Below, piece by piece: positions 15,001 to 18,000 of a DNA stretch of 64,000 nucleotides. Position numbers: made by a program. The DNA is taken from the NCBI RefSeq assembly GCF_055900595.2, contig NZ_CM148325.1. One strand, 5' to 3'. Position 1 is the stretch's first letter; the number at the start of each line of letters is the position of its first letter.

Positions 15001-18000
15001 ACGTTAACTGTCACCTACCAGGGCTGTGCTGATGCTGGTTTCTGTTATCCGCCAGAAACCAAAACCGTTCCGTTAAGCGAAGTGGTCGCCAACAACGCAG
15101 CGTCACAGCTTGTGTCTGTTCCGCAGCAAGAGCAGCCCACCGCGCAATTGCCCTTTTCCGCGCTCTGGGCGTTGTTGATCGGTATTGGTATCGCCTTTAC
15201 GCCATGCGTGCTGCCAATGTACCCACTGATTTCTGGCATCGTGCTGGGCGGTAAACAGCGGCTCTCCACTGCCAGAGCATTGTTGCTGACCTTTATTTAT
15301 GTGCAGGGGATGGCACTGACCTATACGGCACTGGGTCTGGTGGTTGCCGCCGCAGGGTTACAGTTCCAGGCGGCGCTACAGCACCCATACGTGCTCATTG
15401 GCCTCGCTATCGTCTTTACCTTGCTGGCGATGTCAATGTTTGGCTTGTTTACCCTGCAACTCCCCTCTTCGCTGCAAACGCGCCTCACGCTGATGAGCAA
15501 TCGCCAACAGGGCGGCTCACCTGGCGGTGTGTTTGTTATGGGGGCGATTGCCGGACTGATCTGTTCACCATGCACCACCGCACCGCTTAGCGCGATTCTG
15601 CTGTATATCGCCCAAAGCGGGAACATGTGGCTGGGCGGCGGCACGCTTTATCTCTATGCGTTGGGCATGGGCCTGCCGCTGATGCTAATTACCGTCTTTG
15701 GTAACCGCTTGCTGCCGAAAAGCGGCCCGTGGATGGAACAAGTCAAAACCGCGTTTGGTTTTGTGATCCTCGCACTGCCGGTCTTCCTGCTGGAGCGAGT
15801 GATTGGTGATATATGGGGATTACGCTTGTGGTCGGCGCTTGGCGTCGCGTTCTTTGGCTGGGCCTTTATCACCAGCTTACAGGCCAAACGTAGCTGGATG
15901 CGCATTGTACAAATTATACTGCTGGCGGCGGCGCTGGTTAGCGTGCGCCCATTACAGGATTGGGCATTTGGTGCAACTAACATTGCGCAAACTCAGGCGC
16001 ATCTCAACTTTACGCAAATCAAAACGGTGGATGAATTAAATCAGGCACTCGCCGAAGCCAAAGGTAAACCAGTGATGTTAGATCTCTATGCTGACTGGTG
16101 CGTCGCCTGTAAAGAGTTCGAGAAATACACCTTCAGCGACCCTCAGGTGCAAAAAGCGTTAGCAGACACGGTCTTACTTCAAGCCAACGTCACTGCCAAC
16201 GACGCCCAAGATGTGGCGCTGTTAAAACATCTCAATGTCCTTGGCCTACCGACAATTCTCTTTTTTGACGGACAAGGCCAGGAGCATCCACAAGCACGCG
16301 TCACGGGCTTTATGGATGCTGAAACCTTCAGCGCACATTTGCGCGATCGCCAACCGTGAACGACACTTGCAGTGGGAAAGACGGAGGAAAATAGCGTGCA
16401 ACGTGAAGATGTACTGGGAGAAGCCCTGAAATTATTAGAATTACAAGGGATTGCCAACACCACGCTGGAGATGGTTGCTGAACGTGTGGATTATCCACTG
16501 GACGAGCTACGCCGCTTCTGGCCAGACAAAGAGGCAATCCTCTATGATGCGCTGCGCTATCTTAGCCAACAGATAGATGTCTGGCGTCGTCAGCTGATGC
16601 TGGACGAAACGCAAACCGCCGAACAAAAGCTGCTGGCGCGTTATCAGGCGCTATCGGAGTGCGTTAAAAACAACCGCTATCCGGGCTGTCTGTTTATCGC
16701 TGCCTGTACGTTTTATCCCGATCCTGGCCACCCTATTCATCAACTGGCCGATCAGCAAAAAAGCGCGGCCTACGATTTCACCCACGAACTGTTAACCACG
16801 CTGGAAGTTGACGATCCGGCGATGGTAGCAAAGCAGATGGAACTGGTGCTGGAAGGCTGTTTAAGCCGAATGCTGGTGAATCGTAGCCACGCGGATGTCG
16901 ACACCGCACATCGGCTGGCAGAAGATATCCTGCGCTTCGCTCGCTGCCGCCAGGGTGGCGCACTGACCTGACAGAAACACAGAAAAGAAGCGATTTGCCG
17001 CAATCTTAAGCAGTTGAATCGCTTTTACTGAAATTAGGTTGACGAGATGTGCAGATTACGGTTTAATGCGCCCCGTTGCCCGGATAGCTCAGTCGGTAGA
17101 GCAGGGGATTGAAAATCCCCGTGTCCTTGGTTCGATTCCGAGTCCGGGCACCAAATTCATATAAACGGACCTCCACGGAGGTCCGTTTTTCGTTTCAGGA
17201 CGCCACGATTTAAGCGTCCTGCCGCCAAATCAATTCTACCGAACTCAACCAGACTCCCCCCACATCAACCCCATTGTGTGGGTATAATTGCGGGTATACC
17301 CCAGTTCGACAGAATTTGTACCCTCTTTAACGCATTCAGAAGGCTGAACTATGGCACTGACTGACGCAAAAATCCGGGCTGCAAAGCACACTGACAAGGC
17401 TTATAAACTCACTGACGGGGCTGGCATGTTCCTGCTGGTACATCCTAATGGTTCCCGTTACTGGCGTCTCCGTTATCGCATTCTGGGTAAGGAGAAAACT
17501 CTGGCACTTGGTGTATACCCGGAGGTTTCTCTCTCCGAAGCTCGTACAAAACGGGATGAGGCCCGAAAACTGATTTCGGAGGGGATTGACCCTTGCGAAC
17601 AGAAAAGAGCTAAAAAAGTAGTCCCTGATTTACAACTCTCTTTTGAACATATTGCACGACGCTGGCATGCCAGTAATAAACAATGGGCACAATCACACAG
17701 CGATAAGGTACTCAAAAGCCTCGAAACACACGTTTTCCCCTTTATCGGCAACCGGAACATCACAACACTCAATACCCCGGACCTGCTTATCCCTGTTCGT
17801 GCTGCAGAAGCTAAACAAATTTATGAAATCGCCAGTCGTCTGCAGCAAAGAATATCTGCTGTAATGCGTTATGCCGTACAGTCTGGCATCATCAGATATA
17901 ATCCTGCTCTGGATATGGCTGGCGCATTGACCTCTGTAAAACGACAGCATCGCCCCGCTCTTGATCTTTCACGTCTGCCTGAACTTCTGTCGCGTATTAA

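Follow-up and report, generated by a model that had tools for sequence, protein, structure and literature searches.

We found that translation of dicD, formerly yjdC, very probably starts at the GTG at position 16396 of the window (the whole 64,000-nt stretch of contig NZ_CM148325.1 that was analyzed), giving a product of 191 aa from a transcript whose leader begins at a sigma-S promoter, with an in-frame GTG eight codons upstream being non-coding. That initiation occurs solely at 16396 we infer from features of the sequence, their rarity and their conservation, all observed directly, together with a transcription start site (TSS), sigma-S binding and a function of DicD that are taken from the literature.

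On the plus strand, the window holds an uninterrupted ORF from 16372 to 16971, made up of 199 codons and a TGA stop. Starting eight codons further 3′, at the second in-frame GTG, the dicD CDS occupies 16396-16971 on the same strand, ends at the same TGA and encodes 191 aa. A sequence-only reading of this locus had the ORF open with an ATG at 16372: The frame, its coordinates and its length of 199 aa hold, but the codon at 16372-16374 reads GTG, as does that at 16396-16398. A contrast between a strong ATG and a weak GTG was dropped for this reason, and since both candidates are GTG, codon identity gives the upstream start no advantage. Translated, the eight-codon extension reads (M)GKTEENS, and the 191-aa form opens with MQREDVLG.

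The 565-aa dsbD CDS lies immediately upstream at 14662-16359 on the plus strand (converted from the RefSeq annotation of the identical EC42405 sequence), and its TGA at 16357-16359 was read directly. Twelve nucleotides separate this stop from position 16372, and the upstream codon begins at the 13th, in agreement with the 13 nt given by the sequence-only reading. dsbD and dicD share one reading frame, with a single TGA and 12 sense codons between them (16357-16398). From the triplet frequencies of the window, the probability that a non-stop triplet is NTG is 0.049; for the 12 sense codons that lead from the upstream stop to GTG 16396, the chance that at least one is NTG is 0.45. Because an in-frame upstream NTG is expected by chance this often (45%), the existence of the longer frame is uninformative.

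The gene is dicD (b4135), the DicD/YjdC equivalog. It scores 367.3 bits against the NCBIfam equivalog model NF008647 (cut-off 267) and 328.3 bits against NF047866, [quoted passage not shown] (cut-off 240). Both profiles are covered end to end (1-191 of 191) by residues 9-199 of the 199-aa ORF, which are exactly the 191-aa product. Its position between dsbD and tRNA-Phe (pheU) is conserved, the segment being found there in 5,424 of the 5,426 complete E. coli genomes. In E. coli g1-11 (NZ_AP040965.1, locus 1713-2722), a deletion has removed cutA, dsbD and the 5′ part of dicD and fused a truncated dcuA to what is left of dicD, its final 222 nt, which PGAP names "TetR family transcriptional regulator." Besides g1-11, two complete genomes are without the segment altogether.

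PGAP calls DicD TetR family, and the protein has been placed in the TetR/AcrR family (PMC9283627). In K-12, yjdC was renamed dicD after genetic interaction, ChIP-qPCR and qRT-PCR had shown the protein to bind and repress the dic cell-division locus (PMC9283627); a strain with chromosomal, C-terminally FLAG3-tagged DicD exists from that study. By analogy, we assume the same binding and repression for the window allele, which is identical to the K-12 protein (NP_418558.2) at 190 of 191 residues. Gene order (dsbD-dicD-pheU) is common to both strains, the start site does not differ, and the sole protein difference is Q165H: Codon 165 (16888-16890) is CAC, His, in the window and also in EC42405 (WP_001317578.1), and Gln is found in K-12 (WP_001188520.1). 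A Pfam-A search of the product returned no family at E ≤ 0.001, TetR_N included, and Pfam is therefore unusable for placing the N-terminal boundary of the HTH domain. There are weak matches to the BetI (E = 2.4e-5) and RutR (E = 2.2e-4) models, far under their cut-offs, and a distant PDB match to 3g7r ("putative transcriptional regulator," E = 1e-7) over residues 10-165 of the long ORF. The 3g7r alignment fits either start and was set aside as nondecisive.

Downstream of dicD is a tRNA-Phe (GAA) gene equivalent to pheU (17078-17153, plus strand; ARAGORN and RefSeq), which also serves as attachment site for the adjoining island. A stem (AGCGATT/AATCGCT) followed by TTTT at about 16990-17027 is a candidate dicD terminator, and TTGACG, 17 nt and TTTAAT just 5′ of the tRNA (17039-17067) form a candidate pheU promoter; both come from our reading of the sequence and neither was reported by the consensus scan. 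A tyrosine integrase (17351-18613) comes after pheU, and then an island of at least 24 kb (17078-42000 and beyond). As annotated in the chicken strain GPEC389, which is 100% identical, its content comprises an AAA-domain protein, a phosphoethanolamine transferase, an outer membrane protein, a PhoX-family protein, IS66/IS3 remnants, an S6-family (SPATE-type) autotransporter peptidase and an AbgT transporter. At least 80% of the island stretch is present in only eight of the 5,426 complete genomes. Where the window strain has this insertion 3′ of pheU, K-12 has only an integrase remnant and EC42405 has none of the island.

The annotation record shows both lengths of the protein. RefSeq begins a 576-nt dicD at the equivalent of 16396 in EC42405 (100% identical over the query), in K-12 CETR2G40 and in MG1655, and current curated and PGAP annotation alike give 191 aa; the 191-aa sequences are found in at least 1,000 contigs each. 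Four accessions carry the 199-aa sequence (K-12 allele), namely AAG59334.1 (EDL933), AAN83639.1 (CFT073), AAZ90807.1 and ABE10139.1, and it is found in 95 contigs. Taken with the frame open from 16372, these four accessions might suggest that the longest ORF is the true gene, with its start at 16372 and the 199-aa form as a real or even the main product. However, the 199-aa entries (EDL933, CFT073, UTI89 and S. sonnei) are first-generation longest-ORF calls without experimental support, the current RefSeq entries are all 191 aa, and the family models begin at residue 9. dicD thus follows, with no difference, the familiar pattern of historical longest-ORF starts that were later trimmed by curation (199 aa early, 191 aa in RefSeq). 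The start is already settled as 191 aa in current databases and, as such, is an ordinary, known result.

The two GTG codons differ greatly in their upstream context. GTG 16396 is preceded, at a spacing of 8 nt, by the Shine-Dalgarno (SD) sequence GGAGG (16383-16387, plus strand), which pairs with the 16S rRNA tail at −9.5 kcal/mol. Counting both strands, the window has 5,963 ATG, GTG and TTG triplets, of which only 0.44% match or beat this value. For GTG 16372, the 15-20 nt on its 5′ side give +0.3 kcal/mol, or −4.2 kcal/mol if a longer tail and irregular pairing are allowed; its value lies at the 71st percentile of the NTG triplets in the window, as for typical non-starts. By anti-SD pairing energy, no SD comparable to GGAGG was found 5′ of GTG 16372, which also tells against the 199-aa form as the main product. 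The sequence-only reading had proposed scoring the ribosome binding sites of both candidates as a check, and the comparison (−9.5 vs. +0.3 kcal/mol) points to the downstream GTG.

GTG 16396 therefore has what defines a canonical SD-dependent start, an NTG with 16S-complementary sequence 5-10 nt upstream. The arrangement of GGAGG, 8 nt and GTG is the same as in canonical SD-led GTG starts, without differences, and is kept across 80 species. Taking the published TSS, the leader does depart from the canonical case in being short, at 22 nt.

We compared 80 orthologous loci from as many species of Enterobacteriaceae, obtained from one scan of species-representative genomes (protein identity, 77%-99%), which include Escherichia, Citrobacter, Salmonella, Enterobacter, Klebsiella, Raoultella, Kosakonia, Leclercia, Trabulsiella and others. 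All 80 loci have GTG as their start codon, and CAACGT or CAACGC follows it directly in every one. GGAGG with an 8-nt spacer is present in 66 of the 80 loci, and the other 14 have a related core (AGGAG, GAGG or GGAGG at 7 nt), so that an SD at fixed spacing is found in 80 out of 80. Codon −8 shows no such constancy: It is GTG in 11 loci, TTG in 13 (NTG in 24 of 80) and a non-start codon in 56. In Salmonella and most Citrobacter, the 80-locus comparison finds the frame from the upstream stop to the conserved GTG free of any NTG, and in seven loci the eight codons themselves are interrupted by an in-frame stop. An alignment of 20 genera contains indels of 1 nt and of 12-14 nt in the interval ahead of the start GTG, some of them not multiples of three. 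The start GTG and its SD are thus fixed in the orthologs while the upstream interval drifts, and by this pattern of indels and stops in the aligned sequences the interval reads as a non-coding leader before a fixed start. An unconserved codon, with stops and frameshifting indels that break the extension in other genera, is again hard to reconcile with a 199-aa gene.

Conservation of the eight codons within Escherichia was considered as an argument for coding and dropped, as it cannot separate the two starts: At this level the conservation is nondiscriminating because those bases are also under constraint from the SD and the promoter.

Klebsiella, Raoultella and related Enterobacter species (L068, L069 and L074-L081; locus positions ~1466-1503) have an in-frame ATG five codons 5′ of the conserved GTG. 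At a spacing of 4 nt, this ATG has a strong AGGAGG SD of its own (−10.2 to −10.8 kcal/mol), so that two SD-start pairs, this one and the conserved SD and GTG, stand in tandem. Judging from these sequences, these genera may have a genuine start ambiguity of 196 versus 191 aa, unlike E. coli. In E. whittamii, Escherichia sp. E1V33 and "E. coli" SCPM-O-B-8794 (L004-L006; ~1470-1480), a 1-nt deletion changes TTGCAG to TTCAG. The deletion falls after the −10 element and before the position of the mapped TSS, making the distance from one to the other one shorter, and breaks the shared frame of the upstream region and the dsbD stop.

The published transcription data bear directly on the upstream GTG. 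A sigma-S ChIP-seq peak at 4361287-4361432 has been assigned to yjdC, for which an "experimentally validated TSS" is given at 4361353 in U00096.2 (PMC4447067, Table 1 and Table S3). Table S3 of that study prints the yjdC sequence from −20 to −1 as CCGTGAAC-GACACTT-GCA(C)T, which equals window positions 16354-16373 save for one letter (GCACT printed, GCAGT genomic) and puts +1 at 16374. The start of dicD is annotated at 4363308 on the minus strand of U00096.3 (the upstream GTG being at 4363332), and the TSS is thus 22 nt upstream of GTG 16396, at G16374 of the window; this conversion takes U00096.2 and U00096.3 to be offset by 1,977 bp and is corroborated by the printed promoter string with its one discrepant letter. 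The 5′ untranslated leader of the dicD-proximal transcript accordingly spans 16374-16395 on the plus strand, and MG1655 and the window agree at every position from −60 to +30 around the start.

The upstream GTG (16372-16374) has G16374 as its last base, and a transcript from the sigma-S promoter therefore cannot encode the eight-codon extension. With the mapped TSS falling within its start codon, the reading in which the 199-aa ORF is the real or main product becomes exceedingly improbable. As for the origin of the TSS, Table S2 of PMC2760140 (Mendoza-Vargas 2009) lists, in the part of that work available to us, a yjdC-specific primer for directed TSS mapping, which maps to window 16574-16593. 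The number 4361353 does not appear in that material, where only the primer and a gene listing were found; we take PMC2760140 to be probably the source of the yjdC TSS.

The −10 element of this promoter is the conserved CGACACTT immediately 3′ of the dsbD stop. It reads C-GACACT-T, with C at −13 (16361-16368, plus strand; PMC4447067, Table S3), and begins two bases past the dsbD stop. In the 20-genus alignment, the ACGACACTT block is invariant at C22, A24, C25 and A26 and almost invariant at C27 and T28, and ACACT is found in 77 of the 80 loci; the −13C, A−11 and T−7 of the element are thus conserved across the orthologous loci. The block is conserved past the dsbD stop because it is a promoter −10 element and not coding sequence. 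Compared with sigma-S promoters (extended −10 consensus KCTAYRCTTAA, with −13C), the dicD element shares −13C, A−11, T−7 and the trailing T, and as at such promoters it falls under a sigma-S ChIP-seq peak, the mapped TSS being 7 nt further 3′ (PMC4447067). It differs in the first base of the hexamer, which is G where sigma-S promoters usually have T. A candidate −35 hexamer, TTGCGC (16339-16344, plus strand), may be read 17 bp 5′ of the −10 element, within the 3′ end of dsbD.

We propose the following route to the 191-aa protein. The sigma-S-recognized promoter, its −10 element directly past the dsbD stop, would fire at G16374 and yield a 22-nt leader carrying GGAGG. Pairing of this GGAGG with the 16S rRNA tail would then set the 30S subunit on GTG 16396. 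GTG 16372 would be in frame by chance and overlap the TSS, and the eight "codons" after it would be leader RNA, not coding sequence. The earlier suggestion that the N terminus corresponds to the GTG eight codons downstream (191 aa) agrees with the SD, the 80 species, the NCBIfam models, RefSeq and MG1655, and the published TSS; its leaning toward the longer frame as an open-frame artifact is shared by every line of evidence obtained here.

Transcripts that enter dicD from upstream would still include the extension. Termination-reinitiation at SD-less starts near a stop codon is established in bacteria. GTG 16372 starts 13 nt past the dsbD stop in a frame that stays open, and a consensus scan found no terminator-like site between dsbD and dicD; a cutA-dsbD-dicD read-through mRNA that contains GTG 16372 probably exists. 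Ribosomes that end at the dsbD TGA might thus reinitiate at 16372 on this mRNA and make a minor 199-aa isoform with the MGKTEENS extension, 16396 remaining the main start. We regard such dual initiation as very unlikely. The upstream codon is SD-less and not ATG, and the strong SD 9-13 nt 3′ of it would divert scanning ribosomes to 16396. Moreover, the −8 NTG is missing in 56 of the 80 species, among them Salmonella and most Citrobacter, and any extended isoform is therefore not under conserved selection. In the supplementary data available to us from TRAINSPOTTER N-terminomics (PMC13245402), INRI-seq (PMC9825163) and tetracycline ribosome profiling (PMC4909307), we found no proteomic or profiling record of the extension, and yjdC, dicD and b4135 are absent from them altogether, an absence that is uninformative because the gene is probably poorly expressed. 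Low-level reinitiation at 16372 is unlikely to matter, given a start without an SD, an unconserved codon and a strong SD just downstream.

A more specific form of this idea is that a minor 199-aa isoform arises only from dsbD read-through, via reinitiation at the SD-less GTG 16372, and that the isoform ratio reports which promoter is active. This is less probable still; if true, it would make the DicD isoform ratio a readout of the activity of the cutA-dsbD operon versus the sigma-S proximal promoter.

For the preferred single start at GTG 16396, these results confirm the 191-aa annotation of dicD and identify the older 199-aa entries as longest-ORF artifacts. The use of this is limited to annotation hygiene and to the cloning or tagging of the DicD N terminus. 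As a by-product, the conserved block past the dsbD stop is explained as a promoter −10 element and leader rather than as coding sequence.
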